Source: Methanothermobacter marburgensis str. Marburg
Lineage (GTDB): Archaea > Methanobacteriota > Methanobacteria > Methanobacteriales > Methanothermobacteraceae
Direction: 5' to 3'
DNA: 32,000 bases
Assembly: GCF_000145295.1 (NCBI RefSeq)
Contig: NC_014408.1
Coordinates: 840,001 to 872,000, forward strand
Shown in pieces: positions 3,417 to 25,381 of the stretch (position 1 is its first letter; each line of letters starts with the position of its first letter). A program made the position numbers and the translations under genes. The notes beneath the pieces are model-generated. The model worked only from the letters and a program-made list of their open reading frames with translations. It did no database searches and was not told the DNA's origin.

Positions 3417-4292
3417 CTAGATACACCCCGTCTGATTCTCAAGTTCAACAATGACCCTTCTGAGGAGCTCTGAGTCGAGATTCCATTTATCCCCATGAAG
3501 CTCAATGAGGCCCCGAAGTTCAAGTTCCTCAAGTTCGCTGCTCCCTGCAGGTATTTCATCCCCTCCAAGGGGGCCCTCCTTTAAAAGACTCAATATATTC
3601 TTTTCCCTCAGGGTTAGGCTGTTAAGTTCAGCGATCCATGGGAAGGCTATCTGCTGAAACTTTGCCTTGAAGTTCTCCTCAAGGAGCACGGGGCCGTATA
3701 TGATTCCATCTGATAGTACATTCAGGAAGCTGTCAATGAATAGAGGCATACCATCTGTGACCTCATGGATATATTCTATTCCAGCCCTGACAGCCCTGAA
3801 ACCCGGTGCCTTGAGGCTGATGTACCTCTCTGTGTCTCTTTCTGTGAGGGGTGGCACCTCAACAACAGCCGCCCCTGGGAGTTCCTCCTGAATATCCCTG
3901 ATAAGTCCCTCGCTGTACCTCACTGCCACAGCACACCGCATGCAGTGCAGCTGCGACATCTTCCATGCATCAATTATGGATGACTTCTCAGGGGGCATGC
4001 TGTCAAGGAGCACATTCCACTCCACGGTTCTTGCAAGAACAGTTATCCTCCTGAAGTCAGGTATGCCCTCATGGGTCCTTCTGATATCGGTGCACCTCAT
4101 ATCAATGAAGGTTGTTCTTGTGGAGTTTTCCTCCTGGATTCTCCTGAGAATAGCGGTTTTTCCTGAGCCCATCTTACCCGTCACAACCACAAAGCCGGGG
4201 TCATTGAGGGCTTCATTAATCCTTCTTATCTCCTTTTCTCTTCCAAAAAAATCGTTTGTCCTGTTTAAAGAGATTATGGGCATTGAGGACAC
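3417..4292 (-). CDS. Archaeal-type (ORC/STAND-like) P-loop ATPase with a C-terminal wHTH-like domain; probably degenerate Walker B
   Basis: FFGREKEIRRINEAL is followed by the Walker A VVVTGKMGSGKTAIL, and VVEVPPLTERDTERYI is typical of the 'ATPase domain predominantly from Archaea' layout. I see no hhhhDE Walker B; the nearest match is WNVLLDS. The C-terminal LTLREKNILSLL...LELRGLIE looks like a wHTH. The gene lies 40 nt downstream of the CARF gene on the same strand. Confidence 0.8.
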   Translation of the reverse strand: MSSMPIISLNRTNDFFGREKEIRRINEALNDPGFVVVTGKMGSGKTAILRRIQEENSTRTTFIDMRCTDIRRTHEGIPDFRRITVLARTVEWNVLLDSMPPEKSSIIDAWKMSQLHCMRCAVAVRYSEGLIRDIQEELPGAAVVEVPPLTERDTERYISLKAPGFRAVRAGIEYIHEVTDGMPLFIDSFLNVLSDGIIYGPVLLEENFKAKFQQIAFPWIAELNSLTLREKNILSLLKEGPLGGDEIPAGSSELEELELRGLIELHGDKWNLDSELLRRVIVELENQTGCI

Positions 4293-4332: not shown

Positions 4333-4935
4333 TTAAAGCACTGCAAGTTCGCCTGCAGAGGTTATTTCAAGTTTTTCACGGTCTATGAACCCCATGTCAC
4401 GGAGTTCCCTTATGTGGTTGTATGTCATCCCCCTGCTTATACCTATCTTGACTGCAAGGTTCTTAACCGATGTTTCACCGGCCTTGAGTTCCTCAAGGAC
4501 CTGTTTCTTGGTCTTGGAGATCCCGAAGCTCAGTATTGGGAGGTCTATGAGTTCACTGTCCTCCTCGGTCACGTACACTATGCGCTGGACATCATGGTTC
4601 CTGGCATAGCAGCCAAAGAGTGCACCGAGTGCCTGGGTCTTCCTGCCACCGCTTATGTTAACCACAACACGCCTTCCGTTGGCCCTTTCCTCATCTATGA
4701 TCTCAACCATGTCCTTTGCAATGGTGACAACATCATAAAGGCTTGTCTCAAATGTCGTTATCTCAACGAAGTTGCCCAGGGTGTCTCTGAGGACCTGTTC
4801 GACCTGTTCCTTCTCCCTTGGCGCCTTATCCTCCTTGAGCAGTACAACCTTCTTTGGTGAGAACTGTGTTATGCAGAACATCACCGGCTCAATGGAGTAT
4901 ATTGTGGATATCAGCGTTGTATCCATTATTATCAC
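4333..4935 (-). CDS. csa3: Csa3-like regulator: N-terminal CARF domain plus C-terminal winged HTH (CRISPR-locus-related DNA-binding protein family)
   Basis: A Rossmann-like N-terminus carries [15 protein letters not shown], a CARF-type GG-R/K-T loop. The C-terminus [30 protein letters not shown] is an HTH. The ORF opens at GTG 4935, but ATG at 4926 ([11 protein letters not shown]...) is the likelier start. Confidence 0.8.
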
Positions 4936-5360: not shown

Positions 5361-5687
5361 ATGAAACTGAAGTATCTGTGCCACAGAAAACCAGAGAGAA
5401 CATTTTCAGTAAGAGGTCACTATTTTCCTGTATGTTCAAGGTGTACGGGCATATATATGGGTGCATTTGCATACTTCCTATACGCATACCTCACAGTGAT
5501 TGAATATGACATCACACTGATAATAGTGGCGTTACTTATGATGGTGCCAACATTTCTAGACGGATTCACACAGCTGCTTGGTTACAGGGAAAGCAACAAT
5601 CTTCTGCGATTTTCAACAGGTCTTGCAGCCGGTGTGGGAATGGGTATACTCACAAAGGCACTGAAGTACTTCATACTCCATCTCTGA
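5361..5687 (+). CDS. DUF2085-family integral membrane protein
   Basis: The N-terminal CHRKPERTFSVRGHYFPVCSRCTGIYMG motif is characteristic of DUF2085, and several TM helices follow. Confidence 0.8.
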   Translation: MKLKYLCHRKPERTFSVRGHYFPVCSRCTGIYMGAFAYFLYAYLTVIEYDITLIIVALLMMVPTFLDGFTQLLGYRESNNLLRFSTGLAAGVGMGILTKALKYFILHL

Positions 5688-5718
5688 ACAATTATGGATC
5701 AAAAAAGAGGTTGATAAA

Positions 5719-6195
5719 ATGAGCTGGTGGGATGAACAGAGTTCAGCAACCAGGGCAGGTGTTATCATCGGGGCACTGTGTCTTGGTTTTATACTTGTTG
5801 TTGCAATAGGTGGGATGATGTCGCCAGATAACACCGCTACTGAAGCGCCCAGTGCAGAAAAATCAAACACACAGGCCCAATCTGAAATCAGGGTTGAGGA
5901 TATTGAAGTCGTCTCAGAGGGCTATGGAAGTTACTCTGTGAAGGGAAAGATCACGCCACTCAAGGACTTCTCCTACCTTGAGATGCATCTTAAGTGGTAT
6001 GACTCAGAGGGAAACCTGCTTTACGACAATCCACTCGCATGGAACATCAATGATGCGAAAGCAGGTCAGCCAGTTAAATTCAGCACCATGGACATCATTG
6101 ACTCAGGAACCCCCGTGAAGGTTGAACTGCTGGTATTCACTGATCTGGCGACTGACGATGACTCGGCCATATACAGAACAACCCTGAATGTCTGA
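5719..6195 (+). CDS. N-terminally anchored exported beta-rich protein, FxLYD-domain-like
   Basis: A GAGGT SD lies 8 nt before the ATG. The TM helix is GVIIGALCLGFILVVAIGG. The extracellular part contains WYDSEGNLLYD, which resembles the FxLYD motif. Confidence 0.7.
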   Translation: MSWWDEQSSATRAGVIIGALCLGFILVVAIGGMMSPDNTATEAPSAEKSNTQAQSEIRVEDIEVVSEGYGSYSVKGKITPLKDFSYLEMHLKWYDSEGNLLYDNPLAWNINDAKAGQPVKFSTMDIIDSGTPVKVELLVFTDLATDDDSAIYRTTLNV

Positions 6196-6210
6196 TGGAG
6201 GTGAATTGTA

Positions 6211-6525
6211 ATGAGTGATGCTGTAGAAACATCAAGGACACTTGAACTTGTCCTTGGGATAATTGGGGCGATCTTCGGTTTGCTTGGAGGTCTTTTTGCC
6301 ATCGTACTTTCGGTTTTCGGCTCTGAACTCCTCTATCTGGGTATCAGTGCAATACTGGCCTCCATTGTGGGGATCATAGGATCAGTATATGTGAGGAACA
6401 ACCCCAGAAGGGGCGGTGTGATCCTAATAGTCAGTGCTATCTGGCTTCTTATAAGCATATCTGCCTATGCAATCCCTGGAACAGTTTTCCTTGGTATCGC
6501 AGGTATTCTCGGGCTGATAAGATAG
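6211..6525 (+). CDS. Small integral membrane protein (3 predicted TM helices), function unknown
   Basis: A strong GGAGGTGA SD sits at 6197-6204. The protein is almost entirely hydrophobic G/I/L-rich helices. Confidence 0.7.
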   Translation: MSDAVETSRTLELVLGIIGAIFGLLGGLFAIVLSVFGSELLYLGISAILASIVGIIGSVYVRNNPRRGGVILIVSAIWLLISISAYAIPGTVFLGIAGILGLIR

Positions 6526-6553
6526 CCCCCATTTTATTTTTTTAACTGGAGGT

Positions 6554-7243
6554 GTGCATTTGAAAAGGTGCTCAAACTGTGGATCAGAAAACAGGAGAAA
6601 TGCTGTCTTCTGTTCCAGCTGCGGGTTTAAACTTAACTCAGGGGGGAGTAACAGCTGGTGGAAAAAGCAGAGCCAGACATCAAAGGTCCTAATAGCGATT
6701 ACAATCCCATTTATCCTGATTATTGCCATTGCGATTACAGCAACCGTATTTAGCGATTACGGTACTGAATCCGATTATGATAGTGTCGATGCAACTGGAG
6801 GGTCAGCGTTAACAGAATCATACCTAAATAAGTTCAAGGGCAATGGAATCTCATTCAGTTACCCCAAGACATGGACTATCTACACACCAGAAGATAAGAG
6901 TTCAGATGCCGTCGTTGATCTCAAATCTTATGATATGGGTATAAACTCCATCATGACCGTCTATAAAAAACCCTACACCCTTGATGCTGAAGCACTAAGG
7001 GACATCTGGCTTGAGGTATGTTATGAAAAAGGGGACACCGTGGAATATGTGAAGGAAATCAAGGTTGATGGCAACCGGGCATATGCCATAAAATCATTTT
7101 ATTATTCAAATGGATGCGGAGAGCATGAGTACATTGTATTCACAGACGGCACATATGAATACTCCTTGCTTTTCACATCTGATGACATCTCACTTATACA
7201 GGATGATATAGACACAATTATAAGGAGTTTCAGGGTTGAGTGA
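6554..7243 (+). CDS. Zinc-ribbon / TM / extracellular-domain protein
   Basis: The N-terminal double CxxC ribbon is CSNCGSENRRNAVFCSSCG, followed by the TM helix VLIAITIPFILIIAIAITATVF and an exported alpha/beta domain (GISFSYPKTWTIY...). GGAGGTG at 6548-6554 favours TTG 6560 (MKRCSNCG) as the true start. Confidence 0.75.
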   Translation: MHLKRCSNCGSENRRNAVFCSSCGFKLNSGGSNSWWKKQSQTSKVLIAITIPFILIIAIAITATVFSDYGTESDYDSVDATGGSALTESYLNKFKGNGISFSYPKTWTIYTPEDKSSDAVVDLKSYDMGINSIMTVYKKPYTLDAEALRDIWLEVCYEKGDTVEYVKEIKVDGNRAYAIKSFYYSNGCGEHEYIVFTDGTYEYSLLFTSDDISLIQDDIDTIIRSFRVE

Positions 7244-7799
7244 TATGGATTCCGACAGGATGATTCCGGTTATTGCAGCGGTTATGGTGGCTCTTCTGTT
7301 GACAGCCGGTGCACTGCAGCTACTCAGGGGTAGCAGTGTTCCAGAAGATAAAGATGAAGCGGCAACAGTTGAAAAAACCTCAGATGGATACCAGCTGAAC
7401 CTTCAGGCTGTCCTTGAACTTGCAGAGATGGACTCAGGTAACGGTACAGTAGAATACAGGGGATTCAACTTCACAGGCCCCCAGTTACTATACATCTTTG
7501 CAAGGGGGGTTGTGATGCTGGAACTCAATGAGACAGGAAAGATCCATGTGGGTGAATACAGTGGCCCTGAGGACCCCTATGGATTCATGGATACCGTTAC
7601 CCTTACAAGGAGCGAATACACCGATATGGCGGAGCGCACATACACATGGATGGACGCCAATGGCAGAAGCCCCAACCATGTTGGTATCTATGTTGAGGGA
7701 TCCCCCGACATAACCCCATCCCTTGCAAGGAAGATCTTCAGACAGGTTCTGGTTGAATACAGGAGGACAGGGACTCTACCTGAAGTGGTGAGTGCCTAA
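7236..7799 (+). CDS. Membrane-anchored protein with a pseudomurein-binding-repeat (PMBR)-like segment
   Basis: The TM helix is MIPVIAAVMVALLLTAGAL. LTRSEYTDMAERTYTWMDANGRSPNHVGI...ITPSLARKIFRQVL matches, from memory, the PMBR pattern (A-x-R-V-x-x-Y-x-E-x-N-x-R-x-P-N-x-V). The gene overlaps the upstream gene by 8 nt. Confidence 0.7.
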   Translation: MSDMDSDRMIPVIAAVMVALLLTAGALQLLRGSSVPEDKDEAATVEKTSDGYQLNLQAVLELAEMDSGNGTVEYRGFNFTGPQLLYIFARGVVMLELNETGKIHVGEYSGPEDPYGFMDTVTLTRSEYTDMAERTYTWMDANGRSPNHVGIYVEGSPDITPSLARKIFRQVLVEYRRTGTLPEVVSA

Positions 7800-7901
7800 T
7801 ACCCTTTTCTTTTTATAGAAAACTAATAACCATTGTTGAATAAACAAACTTTTATCCTCAAACTATCAAATGGGAAAATAGTGTACTAATGGAAGTTCAG
7901 T

Positions 7902-8588
7902 ATGCAGAGAAAATTGATCCTATCACTCATAATCACAGGAGCCCTAATCACGGTTTACCTGCTGAACCCCTCCCTCCACAGCACAGATAGGAACGAAGCT
8001 GTGGTTCTCGGCTCTGATAAGATGGGCACAGTTGAGAAACTTGGACCCTACGGGAACAGGGACTCAGAGGTGAAAATAGCCTACATAACAGGAGTCCACC
8101 CCCTTGAGAGGGACTCCCACAGGGCATTGCTGCAGGCCCTTGAGGAGAACCAGGATAAACTGAGGTACACGTACTTCGTATACCGGGTCAACGTTACATT
8201 TAAGCCGGAGGACTATGAAAAGGGGAGGATGGCAGGACAGCTCCTTGCACGAAGATACGTGGTTCCCGATGTATCCCGGGACAACTACAGCCTCGCAGTT
8301 GATGTGCACTCCAACAGGGGCAACTATGGTATGAGGAGGTTCGTTTTCACTCCACTCCCCCATGATCAAAGCAGGGTGATAGCCCTGAAACTTGCATCCA
8401 GGATCAGCTGGCTATCCTACTACTTCCCTGAGTCACAGACAAGCCCCGCCTATGTAACGGAACCCATAATTCAGGGGGGAACACCCGCCATACTGTATGA
8501 GAACTACATGTACCAGGACTACTCAAGAACCCTGGAACATGCCAGGGAGTTTGTAATAACCCTTGACTCCACTGACATCCCCTCATAA
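7902..8588 (+). CDS. Signal-anchored exported protein with an HxxE...H motif; possible zinc hydrolase or amidase (function speculative)
   Basis: The N-terminal hydrophobic anchor is LILSLIITGALITVYLL. The motifs ITGVHPLERDSH and AVDVHSNRG resemble the metal-ligand arrangement of M14/AstE-like or gamma-glutamyl hydrolase-like enzymes. This is motif-level evidence only. Confidence 0.65.
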   Translation: MQRKLILSLIITGALITVYLLNPSLHSTDRNEAVVLGSDKMGTVEKLGPYGNRDSEVKIAYITGVHPLERDSHRALLQALEENQDKLRYTYFVYRVNVTFKPEDYEKGRMAGQLLARRYVVPDVSRDNYSLAVDVHSNRGNYGMRRFVFTPLPHDQSRVIALKLASRISWLSYYFPESQTSPAYVTEPIIQGGTPAILYENYMYQDYSRTLEHAREFVITLDSTDIPS

Positions 8589-8906: not shown

Positions 8907-9596
8907 GTGGTTGATGTATGCGCTGCGAATGGATATGATGAGATATCAGAAAAACTGAAGACCCTGCTTGGACTTGAAAAGTCCCCGGTGGCTATAAAAC
9001 TCGTTCTAAGGGAGGATGACCTTCCTGAGGGCGTTGAAAAAATAGAGAAACCTGCAAGGCACTGTGAAATGGTCCAGATGGCCGCTGCAGGAAAATCCTT
9101 CTATGCAACGGCAGAGGCCCAGGCATGCAAGGGTGGTGCAGATGCCCTTGGAATAGACGAGGCGCCAGAGAAGGTCAAAACAGGGGAGTTCTACTACAAC
9201 CTTGGCCGCTTTGCAAGTTTTGCATCCGCCAAGAGGACCTTTGATGAGATACCATCCGTTGACCTCAGGTTCTACGCCGCAGTATACGCACCCCTCGAGG
9301 ATGCAACCTTTGACCCTGACGTCATAGTCATCATCTGCAACCCTGCCCAGGCAATGAAGATCTCACAGGCCCTCGTCTACACCCTGGGTGGCCGCGTTGA
9401 GGCAGACTTCTCAGGTATACAGTCACTCTGTGCAGACGCAGTTGCAGGCCCCTACATGAGGAAGAAGGCAAACATAACCATGGGGTGCAGCGGTTCAAGG
9501 CAGTACGCCGGTGTAAGGGATGATGAACTCATCGTGGGGCTCAACGGTGAGAACATAGGGTGTGTTGTCAACGCTCTTGAGGCAATAAGCCAGTAG
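8907..9596 (+). CDS. DUF169-family protein
   Basis: A GGTGA SD is 5 nt upstream of GTG 8907. The sequence pattern LLGLEKSPVAIKLV...PARHCEMVQMAAAGKSFYATAEAQACKGGADALGI is typical of DUF169. Confidence 0.85.
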   Translation: MVDVCAANGYDEISEKLKTLLGLEKSPVAIKLVLREDDLPEGVEKIEKPARHCEMVQMAAAGKSFYATAEAQACKGGADALGIDEAPEKVKTGEFYYNLGRFASFASAKRTFDEIPSVDLRFYAAVYAPLEDATFDPDVIVIICNPAQAMKISQALVYTLGGRVEADFSGIQSLCADAVAGPYMRKKANITMGCSGSRQYAGVRDDELIVGLNGENIGCVVNALEAISQ

Positions 9597-9618: not shown

Positions 9619-9837
9619 GTGATGATTGTGGTTGAGACAAAGACCTTCAGGATCCTCGAGGATGTTGCTGACCTCGAGGAGAAGATAAAAAAGTATGAGA
9701 GTGAGGCAGACCAGGAACTTGTTATAAACTGGATCTATGACACCCTCGAGATCCTCAGGAGTGTGGGTAATCTCCTTGAGGAGATTGAGGATAGGCTGGA
9801 TCTTCTTGAAGAGGAGACCGAGGAAAAAGAATTCTAG
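9619..9837 (+). CDS. Small acidic coiled-coil protein, function unknown
   Basis: The protein is Glu/Leu-rich with a heptad-like sequence (LEEKIKKYESEADQEL...LLEEIEDRLDLLEEETEEKEF). A GGGGTGA SD precedes it. The start is ambiguous among GTG 9619, ATG 9622 and GTG 9628. Confidence 0.5.
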   Translation: MMIVVETKTFRILEDVADLEEKIKKYESEADQELVINWIYDTLEILRSVGNLLEEIEDRLDLLEEETEEKEF

Positions 9838-9839
9838 GC

Positions 9840-9887
9840 GCAGGGTCCCCCCTATTTTTTCTTTTAAAGAATAGTTCCAGACCCTGC
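9840..9887. terminator. Nested hairpin with an internal T-run between convergent genes (candidate bidirectional terminator)
   Basis: GCAGGGTC (9840-9847) pairs with GACCCTGC (9880-9887) as a perfect 8-bp inverted repeat. The inner arms CTATT (9851-9855) and AATAG (9870-9874) flank TTTTCTTTTAAAG. Confidence 0.5.
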
Positions 9888-9892
9888 TACAC

Positions 9893-10549
9893 CTATTTCC
9901 TTTTAACTCCAAAATATTCCCTTATTCTGAGGTAATCACTGTAGTGGTTTATATTTACAAGTTCAATGGGGTCTGATGCCTCAACACCGTACAGCCTGAT
10001 GCCATCATCCACCATCAAACGGAGCAGAGGATTTATATTTCCATCACCCATTGGAAGGTACCTTTTAAGGAGCTCTGAGCTCGCTGCAAGGGGCATCCCG
10101 AGGCCCTCGGCGCTATCAAGCCAGCCACTCATTCCCCTTGCAAGTACCGAAACCGTCTCAGAATCAGCGTGTTCACTGATCCTCCCCATGGTCTCAGGGG
10201 ATACTGCAGGCTGGTCTCCGGCGATACAGAGTATGATTTCGCCGGAAGCAGATAGAACACCATTGAGAAGTGATGCCGAGAGTGGAACATCCGCAGGATC
10301 GTTCCTCACAATCTCAACATCCAGACCTGATATCGCAGCCTCCACCTCCTCTGCGTGGTGGCCTGTTACAATGATGCACTCATCCACACCAGCCCTGAGC
10401 ACGGAATCCAGAGTTTTCTCTATTACAGTAACTGAGTTGAGGGGGAGCAGTAATTTGTGGACAGGCTCAAGGCCGAGTTCCTGCATGTCCCTGCACATAC
10501 GGCTACCCCTCCCTGCCGCCGTAACAACAGCTGAGATCAACTCCACCAC
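9893..10549 (-). CDS. MobA-like (NTP_transf_3 type) nucleotidyltransferase
   Basis: The N-terminal VVTAAGRGSRM nucleotide-binding loop and CIAGDQP motif are typical of MobA/MocA-like NTP transferases. The GTG start directly abuts the TAG stop of the upstream gene (10550-10552). Confidence 0.8.
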   Translation of the reverse strand: MVELISAVVTAAGRGSRMCRDMQELGLEPVHKLLLPLNSVTVIEKTLDSVLRAGVDECIIVTGHHAEEVEAAISGLDVEIVRNDPADVPLSASLLNGVLSASGEIILCIAGDQPAVSPETMGRISEHADSETVSVLARGMSGWLDSAEGLGMPLAASSELLKRYLPMGDGNINPLLRLMVDDGIRLYGVEASDPIELVNINHYSDYLRIREYFGVKRK

Positions 10550-11737
10550 CTATGCCGGTTCAAGTCTGTAGATTCTGGCGTATATGGTTGTACCTGCACC
10601 TGAACCCGTCGTCCACATCTCAATGAGTACCGGGTACCTTCCCGTATTTCTGACCTTTATCCCGGTCGCCGGGTTGAATCCGAATAGAACCGCATGGAAC
10701 TCCCAGGTCATTCCCCTGGGGAGTGGCATCCCTGCGTCAGTTACAACGGCCCTGAGGGCCCTTGCAGGTGGACATGAGCCGTGGGACGCGTATCCACCTG
10801 GGGCCTTGGGGTCCCTTGATGCAGTGAACCTGACGGTCTCCTTACCTGAACCCTCACTTCCCGGTGGAATCACAGTGCCATTCCATGCCGCCGCGAATGC
10901 CCTTGCATTGAAGGCCCTCTTGTTATCATCATACTGGGGATATGAGCCCAGGTAGCTCACTGCAGATGATACCAGGACCTTCCTGTAGCCCCCCGTGTAC
11001 ACCATGACAGGCGACCCTGAGGGGTAGTTCTCCATGTACTCAAGGACATCCTTGCCAAAGAGTTCCTCTATCCTCGCTGGTGAAACAGGGAGCCTGCCAT
11101 CGCTGAAGTTGGAGAGCTGGTAGTCCAGAACTATCTCGTCACCATCATCAGCCCTTCTGAACCACCTCTTTATCCTGTTAACTGATTTGTACCTGTGGGG
11201 GACGGTGCTGTTGCTTATACTATCTGCAGGGACAAATCTAACCTTCCTTCCGTTCTCAATGATATCCATACCATTGCTTCTCTTGACCCCATAGGTGTAG
11301 GGTGTCTTGTAGGCCCAGAGGAAGACCGGTGGCTCCTGAACCACCAGTTTACCCCCTGAAACCCTCAGTACCCCAGGACCGTCCACAGTGGATCTTCCTG
11401 AGGGGTCCATCCCGGAGGTCATCTCGGATATCGGGACATGCACGGCCCCTGTGAGGACCGCTTGGAGGAGGTTCCCGGGGTCCATGTAGTTGAATTCATC
11501 AAGTATGTAGTCCGGGTGGAGTATGAGAGGGACGCTCCTCACCCGGGACTCATCGATGACATCCTGGCCCTTCAGTACCGTGCTTCCAGGCTCAAGGGCA
11601 GCTATCTCCACTGGATCTTGGGGTTCAACACTCCCCTCAATGTATGCACCTGATGCTGTTATGATGGCTGCCACAATAACCAGAAAAATGATGTGCTTAC
11701 CTGATATAATCCTCTGCATATCTGAATCCCCCCTCAC
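10550..11737 (-). CDS. N-terminally membrane-anchored exported protein with a VanW-like C-terminal domain carrying an SHGSC motif
   Basis: The TM helix is HIIFLVIVAAIITASGAYI. The C-terminal WNGTVIPPGSEGS...GGYASHGSCPPARALRAVVTDAGMPL...EFHAV...IKVRNTGRYPVLIEMWTT...TIYARIY parallels, from memory, the VanW-family pattern (PGE-FS ... GGG-C-Q-S-LY-A-AG ... H ... F-N-t-pi-I). The likely start is ATG 11719, after a GAGGGGGG SD. The gene overlaps the ligase gene's 3' end. Confidence 0.8.
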   Translation of the reverse strand: MRGDSDMQRIISGKHIIFLVIVAAIITASGAYIEGSVEPQDPVEIAALEPGSTVLKGQDVIDESRVRSVPLILHPDYILDEFNYMDPGNLLQAVLTGAVHVPISEMTSGMDPSGRSTVDGPGVLRVSGGKLVVQEPPVFLWAYKTPYTYGVKRSNGMDIIENGRKVRFVPADSISNSTVPHRYKSVNRIKRWFRRADDGDEIVLDYQLSNFSDGRLPVSPARIEELFGKDVLEYMENYPSGSPVMVYTGGYRKVLVSSAVSYLGSYPQYDDNKRAFNARAFAAAWNGTVIPPGSEGSGKETVRFTASRDPKAPGGYASHGSCPPARALRAVVTDAGMPLPRGMTWEFHAVLFGFNPATGIKVRNTGRYPVLIEMWTTGSGAGTTIYARIYRLEPA

Positions 11738-14714
11738 CGATTATGAGTACGGTGTCATCTGGTTCTGCAATTTCAAGGGCCTTACTGACGGCCTCCTCAA
11801 CCTGTTCACGGCTCGCTCCAAGGGTCCCAGCACCAGCACGTTTTCTGCTGGATTCTATATGGACCACCCTCTTACTCAGGATACTGGAGGCTCTCCTTGC
11901 AGCATAGGAGGCCGGTATAACGGTGTCGGCATCCTTCAGGAGCGATGCGATTTCCAGGTCCCCATCGATTCCACTCTCAGATGCCACGGTGTTTACGACT
12001 ATCAGCCTTCCATCGGTACCTTTAAGTTCCTGCATCACCGCCCTCACGCCGGCCGGGTTGTGGGCGTAGTCAAGTATGACCCGTGGTGAGTCCATCAGCT
12101 TCTGGAACCTTCCCCTCACACCACTGAATGACTCAATTCCCCTCACTATATCATCCATGTCCACGCCAAGTGACCATGCAGCGGCAGCGGCTGCCAGTGC
12201 ATTGTAGACATTGAAGATCCCTGGTGTCCTGAGTTTCACATTCCTCATCTCGGAGCCTATCACCAGTTTGAATCCATCTGCAGATGCCTCCAGTGCCATA
12301 ACCTCAGGCTGGGGTCTCCGGTAGCCGCAGACACACTGGTAGTCCCCCAGGTGCCCCATGGTCCTGCGAGTATATTTGAGGTTGTTGCCACATTTGGGGC
12401 ATTCCCTCCCCTCTGGCATGACCGGGGCCGACTCCATACTCTGGATACCGTAGAGCACCGCTCTCTCCTCCCTCAGTCCCTCTGCGAATGATGCGACGAT
12501 GGGGTCATCGGCGTTGAGTACTATGACCTCTGCTGTATCAATGATCTCCCTCTTGCATTCAATGTAATCAGAGAACCTCCTTCCACCTGAAAGGTGGTCC
12601 CTTGATATGTTGGTTATGACGCCCACTGAGACCCCTGAGAGAAGGGCTGATTGCCTTATCTCACCCCTCCGCCCGAATGTCCCTATCTCAACCACCGCCA
12701 CGTCCCCAGGGAGTCTTGCCTGAAGGGCCGGTACCAGTTCGGTGTTGCCCTGTATGCTGAGGTGGTGCTCTGGCACAGTCTTTCCAGCAGCCCTAATTAT
12801 GGATTTGAGAATACCGGTGGTCGTGGTCTTTCCATTGGTCCCTGTAACTCCAACCACCGGTTTCTCAACAGGACACATATTCAGGACGTCCTCAACACCT
12901 ATCACATCAGCGTCAAGTCCACTGATAAGGTCAAGAACCCTTCTGTTATTCTCGAGGGCCGGTGTGATGGCTATGGTGCCAGCGCGCCTGAGGACATCCA
13001 TGCTGTGACCCCCAAGGTCAAGTTCTATTCCCTCCTCCCTGAAGACATCCTCGAGGGGTGTGCTTTCCTTCAGATCCGAGACAATTACCCGGTAACCCCT
13101 GGCCCTGAGGTTCCTTGCCATGAGGCTCCCCACATTTCCGCAGCCTCCAAGAACAACTATGGAGTCCCTCATTGACTCTATGGCCCTCTCAATATCATCC
13201 CTCACATTATCATAGGCGTTGACAACCCCTGGGCCCAGGTGTAGTACAGTATCCCCCTTTTCTGCGATTTCAAGCGCCCTCCTTATGCTATCATATACAC
13301 TCTCGGTCTTTATGGTTTTATCCCTGCCGGCACCCCCTTCAACCTCAGAGGCCGCTTCCATGTCAATCTTACCTGTTGTCTCATTCTTGCCGCTCACAAT
13401 TAATACATCAGCTCTTTCACCCAGTATCTGGCCTATCCTGTATTTGTCCCTCACTGTGAGGGTGTCAGGGTTGTCCAGGCTTATTATCAGCCTTCCCTTG
13501 AATTCAATGCCCTCAAAGAGTTTCTCCATGCTCTCAGGGTTGTGGGCTGCGTCCATATAAACAGGCACACCATCAACCTGATCTATGAATTCGAATCTAC
13601 CCTTTATACCCCTAAATTCCTCTAATGCATTTTTAATATCCCTAATGTCAAATCCGAGTACCAGTGCAACGGTTATGGCTGCAAGGGCGTTCTCCACATT
13701 GAAGAGACCCGGTACCCTGAGTTTTATCCTCTCTGTAAGGGGCCCGATATGGATCACACCATCATGTTCCCCACAGTTTAAAGATCCGCACATGCTGCAG
13801 AGGGCAGTCGGTATCTCTGAGACCTTCAGTGTGAACTCTGAGCCCTCAAGACCCATGAGGTCTATGTCTGTTGCGCTGACCTGTGGTTCTGCCGAGCCAC
13901 TGAAGGTTCTGTCCATGAACTCAACTTTCCTTTCATTTCCCAGACCATAGACAACACTTTTAACCTCAAGGTCATCCAGGAGCCCTGCGATTACCGGGTC
14001 ATCTCCACAGAGTACCAGAACACCCTCCGGGGCTATGAGGTTCTTTATTGAGAAGTTTCTCTCAATGTATTCGTCGTAGTCCCTGAACTCATCCATGTGG
14101 TCTGGTGTGAGGTTTGTCACAACACCAGCCACTATTTCAAGGCCATCAGCCATCCTTATGGTCCCATGTGGGAGTTCAAACACGGCCATGTCCCTGTTAC
14201 TCACATCACCATTCACCACAAGTTCAACGAGTCCCTCAATGACCAGTGAGTCCTGGATCGATGAGAATGACACCGTCCTGTAGCGTGAGGAAAGTATGTG
14301 GTCTATCATGTTGGTGGTTGTTGTCTTTCCGTCTGTCCCTGCAACTCCCACCATGGGGATGCCTATGAGCTGGTTCAGGACCCTCCCGATATCTGATGTT
14401 GTTATGTGAATAAGATCCTTCTCCACACTCTCCAGCATCCCCCGTACCGGTGCATCAGAGGGGATGCTGGGTGATACGAAGACGGCGTCGGCCCAGAGCA
14501 TGTCCTCAATCCTGTGACCCCCTAACCTGAACCTTACACCCTCCCTTTTCATTTCATCTATTCTCTTCCTGGCCTTGGGGGGCAGTTCATCCAGTTCCCT
14601 GAGGTCATTCACAAGCACACTGTTCCCAAGGTGTCTCAGCAATCTTGCGGCGGGTCTGCCAGCGTTTCCAGCTCCAAGCACAAGCACTTTCATGTTCCTG
14701 ATCAATTTATGCAC
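11697..14714 (-). CDS. Tandem fusion of two complete Mur-ligase-family modules (MurD/MurT-like); candidate pseudomurein peptide ligase
   Basis: Module 1 has MKVLVLGAGNAG (Rossmann), VGVAGTDGKTTTT (P-loop), CSMCGSLNCGEH and YMDAAHNPES. Module 2 has IVVLGGCGNVG, VGVTGTNGKTTTT, CPKCGNN...YQCVCG (Cys4 ribbon) and ILDYAHNPAG. The alternative start ATG 14693 (MKVLVLG) is likely. Confidence 0.9.
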   Translation of the reverse strand: MHKLIRNMKVLVLGAGNAGRPAARLLRHLGNSVLVNDLRELDELPPKARKRIDEMKREGVRFRLGGHRIEDMLWADAVFVSPSIPSDAPVRGMLESVEKDLIHITTSDIGRVLNQLIGIPMVGVAGTDGKTTTTNMIDHILSSRYRTVSFSSIQDSLVIEGLVELVVNGDVSNRDMAVFELPHGTIRMADGLEIVAGVVTNLTPDHMDEFRDYDEYIERNFSIKNLIAPEGVLVLCGDDPVIAGLLDDLEVKSVVYGLGNERKVEFMDRTFSGSAEPQVSATDIDLMGLEGSEFTLKVSEIPTALCSMCGSLNCGEHDGVIHIGPLTERIKLRVPGLFNVENALAAITVALVLGFDIRDIKNALEEFRGIKGRFEFIDQVDGVPVYMDAAHNPESMEKLFEGIEFKGRLIISLDNPDTLTVRDKYRIGQILGERADVLIVSGKNETTGKIDMEAASEVEGGAGRDKTIKTESVYDSIRRALEIAEKGDTVLHLGPGVVNAYDNVRDDIERAIESMRDSIVVLGGCGNVGSLMARNLRARGYRVIVSDLKESTPLEDVFREEGIELDLGGHSMDVLRRAGTIAITPALENNRRVLDLISGLDADVIGVEDVLNMCPVEKPVVGVTGTNGKTTTTGILKSIIRAAGKTVPEHHLSIQGNTELVPALQARLPGDVAVVEIGTFGRRGEIRQSALLSGVSVGVITNISRDHLSGGRRFSDYIECKREIIDTAEVIVLNADDPIVASFAEGLREERAVLYGIQSMESAPVMPEGRECPKCGNNLKYTRRTMGHLGDYQCVCGYRRPQPEVMALEASADGFKLVIGSEMRNVKLRTPGIFNVYNALAAAAAAWSLGVDMDDIVRGIESFSGVRGRFQKLMDSPRVILDYAHNPAGVRAVMQELKGTDGRLIVVNTVASESGIDGDLEIASLLKDADTVIPASYAARRASSILSKRVVHIESSRKRAGAGTLGASREQVEEAVSKALEIAEPDDTVLIIGEGGFRYAEDYIR

Positions 14715-14860
14715 CCATAGATCTCTTTTAAGTTAAAAGTATTCATGGTCATGAAGTAATAGTTATTATCAATCCAGATTTTCCCGGATGCTAAAGAAAT
14801 ATGCTGTCCAGTTATTAATTATGGGTTATTCATATATACCACTTACGCAGGTGATGCTGT

Positions 14861-16072
14861 TCATTCACAGGAGGAGATCTCCTCGAGTTTTTCCTGGACC
14901 CTGATTATCCTGTCCTGACCGTTTCCACCCACGAAGATCCTCCTGTATTTCCTGGAAAACTCAAGGACCATACCGGGGATTTCATCAGGGTCATCAACCG
15001 TTATGACCTCTGATGGGATTTCAAGGCCCTCAAGGTATTCCATTACCATGTCAACCGTGTCCTCAAGGCCAGGGAATATCACAAGGACCTCCGGTGGTGA
15101 CTCTGCAACCTCATCAAGGATACGGAGGCGCCACTCCTCTGACCTCCTGGGGGTCCCGATGAACATGACATCGAATTCTGATTCTGAGAGTACTGCCCTC
15201 AGGGCATGGGGGTTGTCGGTTTTACCTGCCACAACATATGCTCCGTTAATGATGAAGGACCTTATACGGCCCCTCACAGGCTCGAAACCGGCAAGCCCTT
15301 CCCTTATGATATACTCTGGAACCCCAAGATACCTGAGGGCCTCTGATGCGGCCCCTGCGTTCAGTCTGTTGAATCCACCCTCAACCCTCAGGGGCCCGGT
15401 GTACTCACTGTAGGTCCTGAGAAGCCGGGGAGCCTCCCTGAGTTCTCCATCTGACTCCGCGGGGCCGACTACAGCATCCCTTCCCTTCAGAAATTCTGCC
15501 ACCATCCGCCTGTAGTTCTCCATTGACCCGTGGAAGTCCATGTGGTCCTCGCCAAGGTTTGTGAGGACCACGAGGTCAATATCAAAGCACTCTGATGCGA
15601 ATTCCAGGGTCATATCGCAGACCTCCACCACCAGGTAGTCGAATTCCTCCTCAGATGCCCTTAAAAAGAGTTCTGTGTAACCCTCAAATCCGCCGCCAGC
15701 ATTTCCGCCAAGAAGCACCCTTTCACCTGCACATTCAAGTACATGTGCCATCATTGTGGCTGTTGTGGTCTTTCCATTGGTCCCTGTGACCACAATGGTT
15801 TTGGGCTTCCTGTGGCCCTCAAGGACCCTGCAGAGGAGTTTATCCCTGAACCGCTCCATGAATTCAGTTTTTATCATTGATGGGCTGATTACAACCGCAT
15901 CTGCAGCCCCTATCTTTTCCGTGTCATGAAAGCCAAGGTCAAGGTCAACTCCCTCAGGTTTTGCAGGGATTTCGCGCCGTATGTCACTTGCATATACGCT
16001 GTGACCCCTTCTCTTCAGTGACTCAACTGCCCTTAAACCCTCAGCTCCAAGTCCCAGCACCGCAACCCTCAT
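14861..16072 (-). CDS. MurD-like Mur-ligase-family protein; candidate pseudomurein peptide ligase
   Basis: A GGTGA SD lies 4 nt before the ATG. Motifs are MRVAVLGLGAEG (Rossmann), VVTGTNGKTTTATMM (P-loop) and a C-terminal domain with GKTDNPHALRAV, a variant of the DxAHNP motif. Confidence 0.9.
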   Translation of the reverse strand: MRVAVLGLGAEGLRAVESLKRRGHSVYASDIRREIPAKPEGVDLDLGFHDTEKIGAADAVVISPSMIKTEFMERFRDKLLCRVLEGHRKPKTIVVTGTNGKTTTATMMAHVLECAGERVLLGGNAGGGFEGYTELFLRASEEEFDYLVVEVCDMTLEFASECFDIDLVVLTNLGEDHMDFHGSMENYRRMVAEFLKGRDAVVGPAESDGELREAPRLLRTYSEYTGPLRVEGGFNRLNAGAASEALRYLGVPEYIIREGLAGFEPVRGRIRSFIINGAYVVAGKTDNPHALRAVLSESEFDVMFIGTPRRSEEWRLRILDEVAESPPEVLVIFPGLEDTVDMVMEYLEGLEIPSEVITVDDPDEIPGMVLEFSRKYRRIFVGGNGQDRIIRVQEKLEEISSCE

Positions 16073-16092
16073 TGCTTCACCGATATTAACTG

Positions 16093-16341
16093 TTAATCGT
16101 CTCCTGAATCCTCATCATCAGAAACCCCATATTCCTCCTTGAGCTGGGCTATTATATCCTCGTTCTTTGAAACCTCTGGTCTGAGAGGTTTTTCCTCTTC
16201 CTCCCTGGACCTCTTACGTTTACCTATAAATACAATCAGCAGGATGATCGCTACAACCGCAAGGATCACAGCCACCGCAGTTAATATAACCTCCAAGCTC
16301 ACAGGCGGAGTTTCAGAAGCTGCCCCGGGTCCCATTACCAC
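16093..16341 (-). CDS. Small single-pass membrane protein with a strongly charged, acidic cytoplasmic tail
   Basis: The TM helix is LEVILTAVAVILAVVAIILLIVFI, followed by GKRKRSREEEEK and ...GVSDDEDSGDD. The stop is 20 nt upstream of the ligase ATG. The start is ambiguous (GTG 16341 or ATG 16335). Confidence 0.6.
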   Translation of the reverse strand: MVMGPGAASETPPVSLEVILTAVAVILAVVAIILLIVFIGKRKRSREEEEKPLRPEVSKNEDIIAQLKEEYGVSDDEDSGDD

Positions 16342-16349
16342 ACCTCAGT

Positions 16350-16359
16350 TTTATATAAA
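16350..16359. promoter_or_regulatory. Palindromic TATA element (TTTATATAAA) readable as TTTATATA on both strands
   Basis: It lies between the divergent genes at 16341 (-) and 16413/16517 (+). On the plus strand it sits about 50 nt upstream of the SD GAGGTG (16399-16404). A second AT box, ATATATAT (~16370-16377), could serve the minus-strand operon. Confidence 0.35.
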
Positions 16360-16516
16360 TAATCATACAATATATATCTTACATGATAATGAAGGATAGA
16401 GGTGGACAGGGGGTGCAGAGTACATACTTCTTTTTGCAGCCATCATAATAATCGCAGTTGCAGCCCTCTACATATACAGCTCCTACTTCAAAATCCCGGG
16501 AAACGAGACAGTTGAG

Positions 16517-16945
16517 GTGAAGCTCACAATAACAAACATCGGCCCATCAAAGAGTGTCTTTATCTATGAGGCCAATAACACCACCGGTGGTGGTAGCAGG
16601 CACATCGTATCGGGGGACCCTGGTAATCGCTTTTTCCTCCTCCAGCCAGGTTCAAGCATGACCTTTAACCTTGGCCGGATGAGTGCCGGAACCAGCTTCA
16701 CGATTGAGGGTGGTGTCGGTGATCCAAGAAGAGGCGCGAGCGACCTCAAGGGTATAGGCCAGATGGGGAGGTGGACACTGAAGATAGGAAACCAGACCTA
16801 CTCCTGGACCATCAGCGGCCCGTTTGACTACCGTAAGAACCCCACCGGAAGTGTCCTCATGTCATTCTCCATAGCAGGGGGCGGAGGATCACCCTTCAGG
16901 TTCACCGCAGACCAGGCCCAGGTGCGGGGTAACGTATCAAGGTAG
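16517..16945 (+). CDS. Exported beta-rich (CARDB-like) protein; the annotated ORF probably lacks its N-terminal anchor (see frameshift finding)
   Basis: VEVKLTITNIGPSK is typical of the first strand of CARDB-like domains. The frame is open back to 16400 and encodes a TM helix but has no canonical start. An SD plus GTG at 16413 sits in another frame. Confidence 0.6.
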   Translation: MKLTITNIGPSKSVFIYEANNTTGGGSRHIVSGDPGNRFFLLQPGSSMTFNLGRMSAGTSFTIEGGVGDPRRGASDLKGIGQMGRWTLKIGNQTYSWTISGPFDYRKNPTGSVLMSFSIAGGGGSPFRFTADQAQVRGNVSR

Positions 16946-21487: not shown

Positions 21488-21536
21488 TCAAAAATGGAAA
21501 TAAAATTATTTGCGGGCTTTTAAAAATTTAGCCCGC
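21488..21536 (-). terminator. rad50 operon terminator: GC-rich hairpin spanning the stop codon, followed by U-tracts
   Basis: GCGGGCT (21512-21518) pairs with AGCCCGC (21530-21536) as a 7-bp stem with an 11-nt loop. Downstream on the minus strand is AAATAATTTTATTTCCATTTTTG. Confidence 0.5.
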
Positions 21537-24041
21537 CTTCTGTATGGTGGATACACCGTCGGACTTTTCAACCCGGTATATGTGGTCTGCAAGGTTTTCA
21601 AGTTCCTCCTCATGGGATACCAGGATTATCTGTCTGGCTTCAAGTTCATCGAAGATGTCTCTGAGCTTGTAGAGCTGCTCCTTGCTGAACCCATCGGTTG
21701 GCTCGTCCAGTATGAGTATATCAGACCGCACATCGGTGAGGCTCTGGACCACCATGTTGAGGGCGAGTCTGTAGGCAAGTGCTATGCTGGTCCTCTCACC
21801 ACCACTGAGGTACTCCAGGTTCTGTTCGTAGCCGTCCTGCTCCACAATGGGTGTGAAGTCCTCGTCAATCCGCACCGATTTATCCGGGTCATCCACAAGG
21901 ACCCTGAACCATTTCTGGAACCTCTCATTGAACTCATGGTTTATCTGTGCCATCACATGGGTCTCAATGTCAGCGAGTGCAGGGATGAAGTAGGATTCAA
22001 GCCAGGTCACATGATCATTCAGTTCACTGGCACGTTTTCTGAGTTTATTCTTTTCATCAATTTCAGCGTTAAGCCTTTTGATCTGATCATCTTTTTCCTC
22101 GATTTTTCCCCCAATGGATCCTATCATGTGTTTCTTCTTATCCCTTGATTCTTCACTTTTACTAAGTTTTTCACGGACCTCCCGTATACTGACCTCCACC
22201 TTCTCCCTGTTTTTGAGTGCCTCCTGGTTTTTCTTTATTTCCTCTTTCTTTTCAGCGATGATTGTAGCATTTTCCTCAATCTTCTGGAGGTTCTCTCCGT
22301 ATTCCCTGCTGGTTTCAGGGTTGAGTTCATGAATTCTTTTTTCAAGGTCCTCTATCTTCGAATCTGATGCTGAAAGTTCGCTGAAACAGTTCTTCTCCCT
22401 TTTAAGGAGGGCTTCCAGGTCCTCCTCAATTTTTCTGAAATGGGATTCCACATCCTTCAGTTCACTGATTATCCTTTCATTTTCCTTTATATCTGATTCA
22501 ATGCCTTTGATTTCTTCCTTCTTATTCTCAAGTTCCTTCTTTTTTTTCCCATATTCGGTTGTCTTCTTCTTAAGGTCCTTCCTGAGTCTACTGAGTTCTT
22601 CCCTAGACCGCATGTATTCTCTCACAGCTTCAAGGAGTTTGTTTTTATTTTCGATTTCAGCTTTGATCTCCTCTATGCTGGATTCAATTGAACCTTCCCT
22701 CTTCAGGGCATCATCGAGTTTATCAGTTATGTAGCTGGGGTCCACATCCTGGTCACATGTGGGACAGACACTTCTATCTCTGATGGACATGTAGGCATTT
22801 ATCTTCTCTGAGATGGCACCCTGCTCCTGCTGGAGCTTTGCTTTATCGTCCTCAAGTTTCGCTATATCAGCTTTCAATTCATCCTCACTGTATCCAGGAT
22901 CCTCAAGGGACTCCAGTTTTCCTATCTCTGATTTGAGGTCGTCAATCTCACCCTTAATTGTGGTGATTTCACGTTCCACATTGTCCATGACACCTGAAAG
23001 GGTCTTAAATTGATTCTTAAGACCTTCAAGCTTGGTAGTAGCATCTCTGAACCTTTCATAGTCATCTCTGATGGATTTTTCCTCATCCTTCATCTTTTCA
23101 ATATCATTTCTGAGTGAATCATGTTCCTCCTGAAGCTTTTTCCTCAAATCCTTGCACTTCTGAAGTTCATCCATGGATTTCTTATATTCTTCCTCTATGT
23201 CCCTGTTTTTCCTCTTGAGACTATCTGAGAATGAACTCAGGTTTTCAATTTCATTCTTGAGGGATTCTATCCTATCTTCAGCAGCCCGAATCTTGTTTTC
23301 CTCCTTTTCGAGTTCTTCAAGTTCCAGTTCGAGTTTGCTGATCTCATCCTCGATTTCTTTGAGTTCAGCTTCGAGATTTTCCCTCTCAGATTCCAGTTCC
23401 CCCTTCTCAGTGATAATATTGTTGAGCTCATTTTTCTTATCATCAAGGTCGTAGGATCTATCCTCAAGGCTTTCTGCGGATCTCCTAATTTTCCGCGAAA
23501 GCAACCTGGCATTATCCGCTGCTCTGCTGTACTTCTCAAGGTCGAAGGCCTTTCTGAGCCTTTCAAGCCGCTCATTTTTTCCGGTCTCTATTATGCTCTT
23601 CATCTGCTCCTGTGGGGTGAAGACCGCGTAACGGTATATCCTGCTCCTGGCCCTTGGATTCAGGGGTTCCCTGTAACCCAGGATGTTAAGTACCTCGGCC
23701 TTCAGTTCCTTTGCAGAGAGTTTCCTTCTCCCTGTGGGTGTTCTGATGTAGAGTTCCCCCTGCTGCACCCCTGAGGCGGCCCTTTTAAGTTCCCGGTAGA
23801 TGGTGTACTCTGCACCGTCAACAGTGAAGGTGAGTTTGACTGAACCTGAATTTGCTGTAGCCCTCAGAAGGCTGTCACCCCTCTGGTCACCCAGCCCGAA
23901 GAGTGCGAATTCTATTGCAAGTAGAAGCGTCGTCTTACCTGAACCTATATCGCCCTCAAATAGGGTCACTCCATCATCAAACTCGACAGTTCCTGATTCA
24001 TAGCTCCTTATGTTCCTGAGTTCAAGTGAATTGATAATCAA
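21528..24041 (-). CDS. rad50: Rad50 DNA double-strand-break repair ATPase
   Basis: Motifs are Walker [21 protein letters not shown], a long E/K-rich coiled coil with the zinc hook SVCPTCDQ, the signature [17 protein letters not shown] and Walker [11 protein letters not shown]. The start is TTG at 24041, preceded by a GGTGGTGA SD. Confidence 0.95.
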
Positions 24042-24114
24042 AGAGTATCACCACCAGCATATCAGTTACCTGGATTCACCCGAGAGCAGGTCAACACCAT
24101 CATCTCTCCTGAGG

Positions 24115-25380: not shown

Positions 25381-25381
25381 C

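Follow-up and report, generated by a model that had tools for sequence, protein, structure and literature searches.

Pseudomurein Gene Cluster 1 of Methanothermobacter marburgensis and a candidate VanW-type domain in its PmurA protein

Genes and signals of the cluster

The stretch of DNA analysed here (the window) comprises 32,000 nt of Methanothermobacter marburgensis str. Marburg, positions 840,001-872,000 of NC_014408.1, and all coordinates are positions in this window. Five open reading frames (ORFs) on its minus strand code for a small membrane protein, the ligase pMurD2, the fusion ligase pMurD1::pMurC, PmurA, and PmurB (Table 1). Together they form the canonical Gene Cluster 1 (cluster B) of pseudomurein biosynthesis, which is already known. 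The subject of this text is chiefly its PmurA protein, whose C-terminal ~125 residues appear, from sequence profiles and predicted structures, to be a divergent VanW-type domain.

All five ORFs were confirmed at the coordinates given in an initial annotation made from the sequence alone, and the junctions that it described hold as well. Twenty nt separate the TAA of the 82-aa ORF from ATG 16072 of pMurD2, and GGTGA lies 5 nt before that ATG. PmurA starts at GTG 11737 or ATG 11719 and overlaps the stop of the fusion ligase by 41 or 23 nt, respectively, and its TAG (10550-10552) directly adjoins GTG 10549 of PmurB. The match to the pMurD1 model starts at residue 8, which makes ATG 14693 the most likely start of the fusion ligase. 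The genes are coupled tightly enough to suggest a single transcript, with a second, optional start within the AT-rich spacer behind pMurD2, a possible internal promoter. TATA-like boxes, GATATATA at ~16371-16378 and TTTATATA at 16352-16359, mark a putative promoter region common to the divergent plus-strand gene. The nested hairpin 3' of PmurB is genuine, though it exceeds chance by no more than a modest margin (-28.1 kcal/mol, z = -2.29; an equally good fold was seen in 5 of 200 shuffles). It is followed by UUCUUUUUCC (the U-tract), sits between convergent genes, and is a probable bidirectional terminator. Scans with sigma-70 and terminator models gave no enrichment, these models being bacterial and not meaningful for an archaeon, and Rfam and tRNA scans across the window were empty.

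Table 1. Features of the cluster (upper rows) and further contents of the window (last five rows)
Feature	Position	Strand	Basis
Small single-pass membrane protein, 82 aa; first gene in operon, lineage-specific	16093..16341	-	ORF
pMurD2, MurD-like pseudomurein peptide ligase, 403 aa	14861..16072	-	NF053647
AT-rich spacer, 146 nt, between pMurD2 and fusion ligase	14715..14860	-	sequence
Fusion ligase pMurD1::pMurC, 1005 aa	11697..14714	-	ORF
pMurD1 half, fusion residues 8-514	13173..14693	-	NF053646, best family
pMurC half, fusion residues 520-1005	11697..13157	-	NF053645
PmurA (Mfer335 family), 395 aa	10550..11737	-	NF053640
PmurA, predicted N-terminal signal anchor, residues ~10-33	~11639-11710	-	hydropathy
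PmurA, beta-rich middle region, between signal anchor and residue ~271	within 10550..11737	-	
PmurA, C-terminal VanW-like domain, residues ~271-395	10553-10927	-	profile-profile
PmurB (Mfer334 family), MobA/MurU-like nucleotidyltransferase, 218 aa	9893..10549	-	NF053639
Nested hairpin GCAGGGUC...GACCCUGC, then U-tract	9822..9887	-	sequence and fold
Putative archaeal promoter region	16342..16385	-	TATA-like boxes read from sequence
Csa3-type CARF regulator	4333-4935	-	window content
STAND/AAA_16 ATPase, beside Csa3-type regulator	3417-4292	-	window content
Rad50-Mre11-HerA-NurA operon	21528-27973	-	window content
DUF499 antiphage-like protein, weak match	29962-31911	-	window content
CobN-like chelatase gene, runs off left end	60-3386	+	window content

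NCBIfam has curated equivalog models for the pseudomurein biosynthesis system, and their matches to four of the five proteins bear out the assignment of the cluster to a pseudomurein stem-peptide system. Scores above the cut-offs were obtained for pMurD2 (NF053647, 554.2 bits, cut-off 550, residues 1-396 of the 405 model positions), the pMurC half (NF053645, 649.9 bits, cut-off 560, fusion residues 520-1001), PmurA (NF053640, 537.2 bits, cut-off 400), and PmurB (NF053639, 273.6 bits, cut-off 260). The pMurD1 half (residues 8-514) scored 483.7 bits (E 5e-145) with NF053646, below the curated cut-off of 610; this is by far the best family for the N-terminal half of the fusion, and an identity as pMurD1 also agrees with its position and its fusion partner. 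GxGxxG and GT(N/D)GKTTT motifs are present in each of the three ligase modules, those of the pMurD1 half being GAGNAG and GTDGKTTT, followed by DAAHNP. The C-domain motif of pMurD2 is GKTDNPHA instead of DxAHNP, and of the Pfam families Mur_ligase_M and MurD-like_N were matched, while Mur_ligase_C was not detected; the description of three complete ligase modules is therefore only approximately right. The translated pMurC half has a four-Cys zinc-ribbon insert (CPKC...CVC), CPKCGNNLKYTRRTMGHLGDYQCVCG, matching the one described for crystallised Mfer336 (PMC10117817).

By family membership and the literature, pMurD2 and pMurD1::pMurC are cytoplasmic ATP-dependent Mur-type ligases that extend UDP-linked glutamate into the stem peptide, and PmurB is a MurU/MobA-like nucleotidyltransferase tied to synthesis of the UDP-Glu starter. 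The likeness to MurU and MobA lies in the NTP_transf_3 fold, matched by PmurB in Pfam at 78 bits. PMurB was reported as structurally similar to MurU (PDB 4Y7U), acting on a UDP-linked wall precursor, and it differs from MurU in a smaller substrate pocket proposed for glutamate, not MurNAc-1-P (PMC12996149). In published assays, UMP-Glu analogues were given to the M. ruminantium orthologue, with results that are not entirely conclusive (PMC12996149).

Earlier descriptions and conservation of the cluster

PmurB (NF053639), the adjacent PmurA (NF053640), and the C/D-type ligases pMurD2 and pMurC are the components that define Gene Cluster 1. Subedi 2021 described this cluster as two invariable ORFs (Mfer334 and Mfer335) with C/D-type ligases, named Methanothermobacter as an example of type 1A with genes "annotated as being fused/overlapping", and proposed nucleotidyl transfer for Mfer334 and phosphoryl transfer for Mfer335 (PMC10117817). 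The same gene set was independently recovered as cluster B in Lupo 2025 (PMC11915815). Cha 2026 assayed PMurB, PMurC, and PMurE; PMurA gave ATP hydrolysis only, with the predicted glutamyl phosphate not detected, and PMurD gave no product (PMC12996149). Gene set, gene order, and taxonomic restriction of the window locus are identical to those of type 1A/cluster B and nothing essential differs, the window adding the 82-aa gene and the 146-nt spacer.

The interpretation made in the initial annotation is partly supported. It stands as to the stem-peptide system, the synteny of PmurA and PmurB, and the VanW-like call, while its claims of novelty and of membership of the 82-aa gene do not. A "largely undescribed" module is out of date, because the cluster with both non-ligase genes was published in 2021 (PMC10117817) and 2025 (PMC11915815). 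Nucleotide activation of glutamate, held to be unassigned, had been proposed for the MobA-like gene in 2021 and was assayed in 2026 (PMC12996149), and the double ligase had been noted as a fusion in the 2021 paper (PMC10117817). The cluster itself is a further example of a system already curated and published, and the value of the analysis lies in the reinterpretation of PmurA.

Relatives of PmurA were sought in one genome per species, 185,579 species genomes in total, which gave 209 loci, and the best 80 were compared. All of these 80 are Methanobacteriales-type records. The closest among them is from a Methanothermobacter metagenome-assembled genome (MAG), with PmurA 93% identical; the nearest genome is MAG Kamch4336-1-MF-09, with ~91-98% protein identity. 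The gene order pMurD2-[pMurD1/pMurC]-PmurA-PmurB is near-universal at the level of ORFs. PmurB is directly downstream of PmurA in 77 loci, pMurD2 is upstream of PmurA wherever the contig allows, and pMurD1 and pMurC lie between pMurD2 and PmurA in about one third. The synteny of PmurA and PmurB with the pMur ligases, named in the initial annotation as a check on its proposal, therefore holds in essentially all related genomes.

Three arrangements of the ligase genes were seen. The pMurD1::pMurC fusion of the window is present at 13 loci, a pMurD2::pMurD1 fusion of ~930 aa with separate pMurC at 11 loci of a Methanobacterium clade, and in the third arrangement the ligases are unfused. Methanothermobacter, Methanobacterium, and Methanobrevibacter all have full-length pMurD1::pMurC fusions of ~980-1200 aa, so the fusion is a genuine and common one. 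The three ligases are thus fused in different pairings in different lineages; the pMurD2::pMurD1 loci are L013, L014, L016, L019, L021, L023, L029, L031, L032, L035, and L055, at about 5600-8400 in each. The spacer behind pMurD2 is also 146 nt long in locus L001 and longer in L004. As most other lineages have a gap of 4-14 nt between pMurD2 and the next ligase, or have both genes fused, it is not a conserved feature.

The PmurA profile, run exhaustively with HMMER against 1.84 billion representative proteins, matched only 70 clusters, mostly fragments, and no bacterial relatives. One marginal match, P0265, an NHL-repeat-like protein aligned over a 45-residue stretch only, was rejected; it was the sole cluster not identifiable as a PmurA relative or fragment. 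In the best 80 of 209 loci and in the 70 protein clusters the PmurA family is confined to pseudomurein-type methanogens, and the cluster is accordingly not common in archaea that lack pseudomurein. Locus L007 (JBNGDB010000006.1) is labelled as Methanomicrobiales archaeon and carries pMurD2-PmurA-PmurB; its neighbouring genes are 69-76% identical to Methanothermobacter genes, and it is probably a mislabelled Methanobacteriales MAG.

In the 82-aa protein an acidic N-terminus is followed by a transmembrane (TM) helix, the stretch KRKRSR, and a tail that is acidic and contains the motif LKEEYG. ATG 16335 (80 aa), which GAGGTG and the TTTATATA box precede, is a likelier start of its ORF than GTG 16341. 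No family in Pfam or NCBIfam matched it above any cut-off. True homologues (MGPG..., TM helix, basic stretch, LKEEYG, acidic tail) were found upstream of pMurD2 at only 3 of 66 loci (L001, L006, and L017), and other "hits" of a search by architecture for a conserved small TM protein at this position were spurious ORFs. With this distribution the gene is a lineage-specific add-on and not a conserved cluster member, and the synteny named as a check in the initial annotation does not extend to it. Several Methanobacterium loci (L028, L037, L043, L053, L054, L060, and L061) share a different translated stretch, ...ALSLLVLRFFLF...FSLCHHDKF, at ~150-350 nt upstream of pMurD2; this is apparently a non-coding element that is conserved, or an antisense feature, rather than a real small protein.

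PmurA: topology, VanW-like domain, and proposed role

In 32 homologues of the 36-sequence PmurA family alignment, a hydrophobic segment of 19 residues (Kyte-Doolittle hydropathy 1.95-3.24) is flanked by a K/R-rich stretch on its N-terminal side and by an acidic one on its C-terminal side; the other four look like truncated gene calls. The AlphaFold2 (AF2) model of PmurA, with a predicted local distance difference test (pLDDT) score of 89.8 and a predicted template-modelling (pTM) score of 0.80, has a helix at residues 13-34. PmurA is hence predicted to be signal-anchored in N-in/C-out orientation, not cytoplasmic, and by the positive-inside rule applied to the N-terminal anchor its body of ~350 residues would lie outside the membrane. 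A membrane insertion domain was also noted in Subedi 2021 (PMC10117817).

No Pfam family matches PmurA above threshold. VanW (PF04294) is the only recurrent weak match, found in 11 of the 36 members (best E 0.0038) and always pairing PmurA residues ~274-303 with the start of the profile; the family consensus gave no gain over single sequences. A diverse VanW profile was composed of 24 sequences from five phyla, including 16 VanW-domain genes fetched from plasmids. Aligned to it in hhalign over 105 columns, PmurA scored 37.0 (P 1.2e-4, probability 55%). This score was not reached in any of 300 column shuffles (mean 14.6, standard deviation 2.6, maximum 25.2; z 8.6), and five decoy families from the same loci and the N-terminal part of PmurA scored 12-18 over 6-26 columns. 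The C-domain alone gave P 3.5e-5 and a probability of 72%, and the 14 most divergent PmurA sequences gave P 5.4e-5.

The alignment covers PmurA residues ~271-380. With both the diverse profile and a narrow one built from VanW-B only, C322 is aligned with the catalytic cysteine of the VanW motif GGGxCQ, and the invariant residues N277, G320, C322, L328, and N364 pair with invariant residues of VanW; R329 is aligned with VanW R148 in the narrow-profile alignment only. The cysteine belongs to the invariant PmurA motif S-H319-G-x-C322-P-x-x-R326-x-L-R329, and C322, H319, R326, R329, N364, and W375 stay unchanged in homologues down to 28% identity. When independent AF2 models of PmurA and VanW-B were compared along the structure-blind alignment, DSSP assignments agreed in 73% of columns, against 35 +/- 8% (maximum 55%) in 272 offset controls. 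Every major secondary-structure element is in register, among them the helix whose first residue is the aligned cysteine (PmurA 322-334, VanW-B 127-139). Topology, profile-profile, and secondary-structure comparisons thus bear out the description of the 395-aa protein as anchored, exported, and VanW-like.

Foldseek found nothing significant for the PmurA model in PDB (best E 0.015, template-modelling score ~0.1) and no significant viral-protein neighbour in BFVD, and the PmurA profile had no match among PDB sequences. As no VanW structure was found in PDB, this null result is uninformative, and absence of a PDB neighbour is the expected outcome if the VanW idea is right. Bollinger 2024 likewise described VanW as a fold without solved relatives (PMC11348318).

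VanW is the catalytic domain in a recently discovered second family of bacterial L,D-transpeptidases (LDTs), which are TM-anchored ectoenzymes with a catalytic cysteine and also have carboxypeptidase activity; the GGGxCQ cysteine was shown to be required for transpeptidation (PMC11348318). PmurA resembles these enzymes, among them Ldt4 and Ldt5 of C. difficile, in its predicted N-terminal TM anchor and extracytoplasmic domain, in the co-linear profile similarity of ~105 residues, in the conserved cysteine at the start of the central helix, and in the order of secondary-structure elements. Both are also involved with a peptide-cross-linked glycan wall in which cross-linking releases a terminal residue. 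PmurA is unlike VanW in that SHGxCPxxRxLR replaces GGGxCQ and that a 4-residue insertion with the invariant H319 lies immediately before the cysteine. Moreover, it is without PG_binding_4 and G5 domains and has a beta-rich middle region of its own, and the peptide on which it would act is all-L and has gamma and epsilon bonds, unlike those of VanW LDTs. The PmurA motif may resemble the SHGC(I/V)R(M/L) motif of the unrelated YkuD L,D-transpeptidases.

Some observations were made on the bacterial VanW genes themselves. In actinobacterial VanW proteins (Nocardia, Rhodococcus, and Streptomyces; L096:618-2606, L097:1206-2603, and L098:891-2627) serine replaces the catalytic cysteine (GGGISQ, GGGVSA). 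VanW reference genes (L084, L085, L090, and L092) are often beside other wall-peptide enzymes, namely M15 (VanY-like) metallopeptidase, M23 peptidase, class E sortase, and Lgt. A scan of viral contigs found no VanW.

The best overall explanation, and a fairly probable one, is a known pseudomurein cluster in which PmurA would be an outward-facing VanW-type enzyme acting on the stem peptide. More specifically, it is tentatively proposed that PmurA could be the extracytoplasmic pseudomurein cross-linking enzyme, a divergent archaeal VanW-type cysteine transpeptidase. With the exported stem peptide as substrate, it would form a thioacyl-enzyme intermediate on C322, most likely removing the terminal residue of the donor stem and passing the acyl group on to an amino group in a neighbouring stem; in a less ambitious alternative it would trim the stem only, as a carboxypeptidase. 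Cross-linking of pseudomurein is described as needing a terminal residue to be removed and as forming a Glu-Lys linkage (PMC2812497). In the literature no transpeptidase orthologue is reported in pseudomurein archaea, and transglutaminases unlinked to the clusters are only postulated. Neither cross-linking by a VanW-like protein nor a paper linking VanW to PmurA/Mfer335 was found in the literature searched, and the idea is one that we infer.

The bacterial dcw cluster, in the organisation of E. coli and B. subtilis, has the order ftsI-murE-murF-mraY-murD-ftsW-murG-murC-ddlB. Cytoplasmic Mur ligases are there co-transcribed with a membrane-anchored, outward-facing transpeptidase, ftsI (PBP3), a bacterial precedent that the placement of PmurA inside a Mur-ligase operon would parallel. 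The dcw enzyme is a serine penicillin-binding protein (PBP), whereas PmurA would be a cysteine enzyme. Unlike dcw, the archaeal genes are split, with Cluster 1 here and MraY, pMurE, and an ATP-grasp ligase elsewhere, and the archaeal pathway starts from UDP-Glu whereas the bacterial one starts from UDP-MurNAc.

Several points weigh against PmurA as a VanW-type cross-linking enzyme. The window protein scores 12.1 bits with PF04294, under the Pfam threshold of 27, and the hhalign comparison with the narrow VanW-B-only profile is marginal (P 0.046; 5 of 200 column shuffles reach the score). The catalytic His and Asp of VanW fall on variable PmurA columns, W345 and N354. The VanW-type triad is therefore absent from PmurA, and any His partner of the cysteine would be the family-specific H319. 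LDT activity was found in only three of seven VanW proteins tested from outside C. difficile (PMC11348318). Lupo 2025 predicted no TM segment and no signal peptide for the PmurA orthogroup (PMC11915815), and recombinant M. ruminantium PMurA hydrolysed ATP (PMC12996149). The operon structure, too, is read from gene spacing only.

Since His and Asp are missing, it is quite possible, if somewhat doubtful, that PmurA is a VanW-like ectoprotein other than a cross-linker, such as a stem carboxypeptidase or endopeptidase active in wall maturation and turnover, an enzyme attaching other molecules to pseudomurein, or a non-catalytic wall-binding scaffold on which the synthesis machinery is held. The carboxypeptidase activity of VanW LDTs and the many VanW proteins that lacked LDT activity would fit such a role, and transglutaminase-like proteins remain the cross-linking candidates of the literature. 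However, the absolutely invariant Cys-centred motif argues for catalysis, the strict one-copy co-occurrence with precursor genes fits core biosynthesis better than turnover, and the transglutaminases are linked to neither pseudomurein cluster.

That the resemblance to VanW is convergent or spurious, PmurA being a methanogen-specific invention of unrelated fold, is unlikely in view of the shuffle, decoy, and secondary-structure controls. It would agree with the score below the Pfam threshold, the lack of bacterial relatives in HMMER, the hhalign probabilities of only 55-72%, and a VanW link made from sequence profiles and secondary structure and not from a 3D comparison. Against it stand the shuffles and the decoy profiles (0 of 300 and 0 of 6 approach the score), the pairing of invariant with invariant residues, the agreement in register of independent secondary-structure predictions, and the same membrane-anchored ecto-topology as in VanW LDTs.

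The published view of PmurA as a cytoplasmic ATP-dependent glutamate kinase, performing the first step towards UDP-Glu as the partner of PmurB, was proposed in Subedi 2021 and Cha 2026 and is in line with adjacency and translational coupling to PmurB and with degradation of ATP to ADP and AMP by recombinant PMurA, but it is very improbable, as it can hardly be squared with a protein body outside the cytoplasm, a place that offers no ATP, Glu-P was not detected in the published assay, the C-domain is specifically VanW-like, and the confident PmurA model resembles no kinase or NTPase in PDB. An "NTPase domain" was reported in PMurA by Cha 2026 (PMC12996149). No NTPase or kinase family was detected in Pfam or NCBIfam with single sequences or with the family, and the sole P-loop-like string, GSEGSGKE (residues 293-300), is not conserved in the family; the missing signature argues against the glutamate-kinase proposal.

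Pseudomurein cross-linking has so far been without a cluster-linked, pseudomurein-specific enzyme candidate, and glutamate phosphorylation, so far the sole role proposed for PmurA, did not hold up when tested directly, the product being not detected. As a cross-linking enzyme, PmurA is a candidate that can be tested with one mutant, and it would inform the debate on shared ancestry of murein and pseudomurein. If the proposal is true, the cytoplasmic glutamate-kinase assignment is wrong, and extracellular cross-linking, like the Mur ligases, shares ancestry with a bacterial (Firmicute-type) wall enzyme, contrary to the current statement that murein cross-linking enzymes are without archaeal counterparts. 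PmurA would then also be an extracellular methanogen-specific drug target, with regard to rumen methane mitigation and gut Methanobrevibacter.

Neighbouring genes

A DUF169 (PF02596) gene at 8907-9596 (+) is convergent to PmurB. It is found just downstream of PmurB on the opposite strand at ~68 of the 80 loci, with 43-98% identity, and is absent from both published cluster descriptions. The gene of a 228-aa protein at 7902-8588 (+) is conserved in position only in L001 among the compared loci. The protein has an N-terminal signal-like segment and an HPLE...H motif, is zinc-carboxypeptidase-like by eye, and had no match in Pfam or NCBIfam even at E 1. A Sec-exported pseudomurein-specific "Zn peptidase", OG0000169, was reported near the cluster in M. 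thermautotrophicus in Lupo 2025 (PMC11915815), and since only three genes separate the 228-aa gene from PmurB, the protein may be OG0000169.

The divergent plus-strand neighbour upstream of the cluster (142-aa ORF, 16517-16945; region 16384-16520) is frameshifted with respect to its orthologue in L001. The G-run at 16409-16413 has five G in the window and six in L001 (MIMKDRGGQGGAEYILLF...), and with five G the signal-anchor helix (AEYILLFAAIIIIAVAALYIY) is not in the frame of ATG 16384. The frameshift is a homopolymer sequencing error, the mark of a pseudogene, or a case of slippage-dependent expression.

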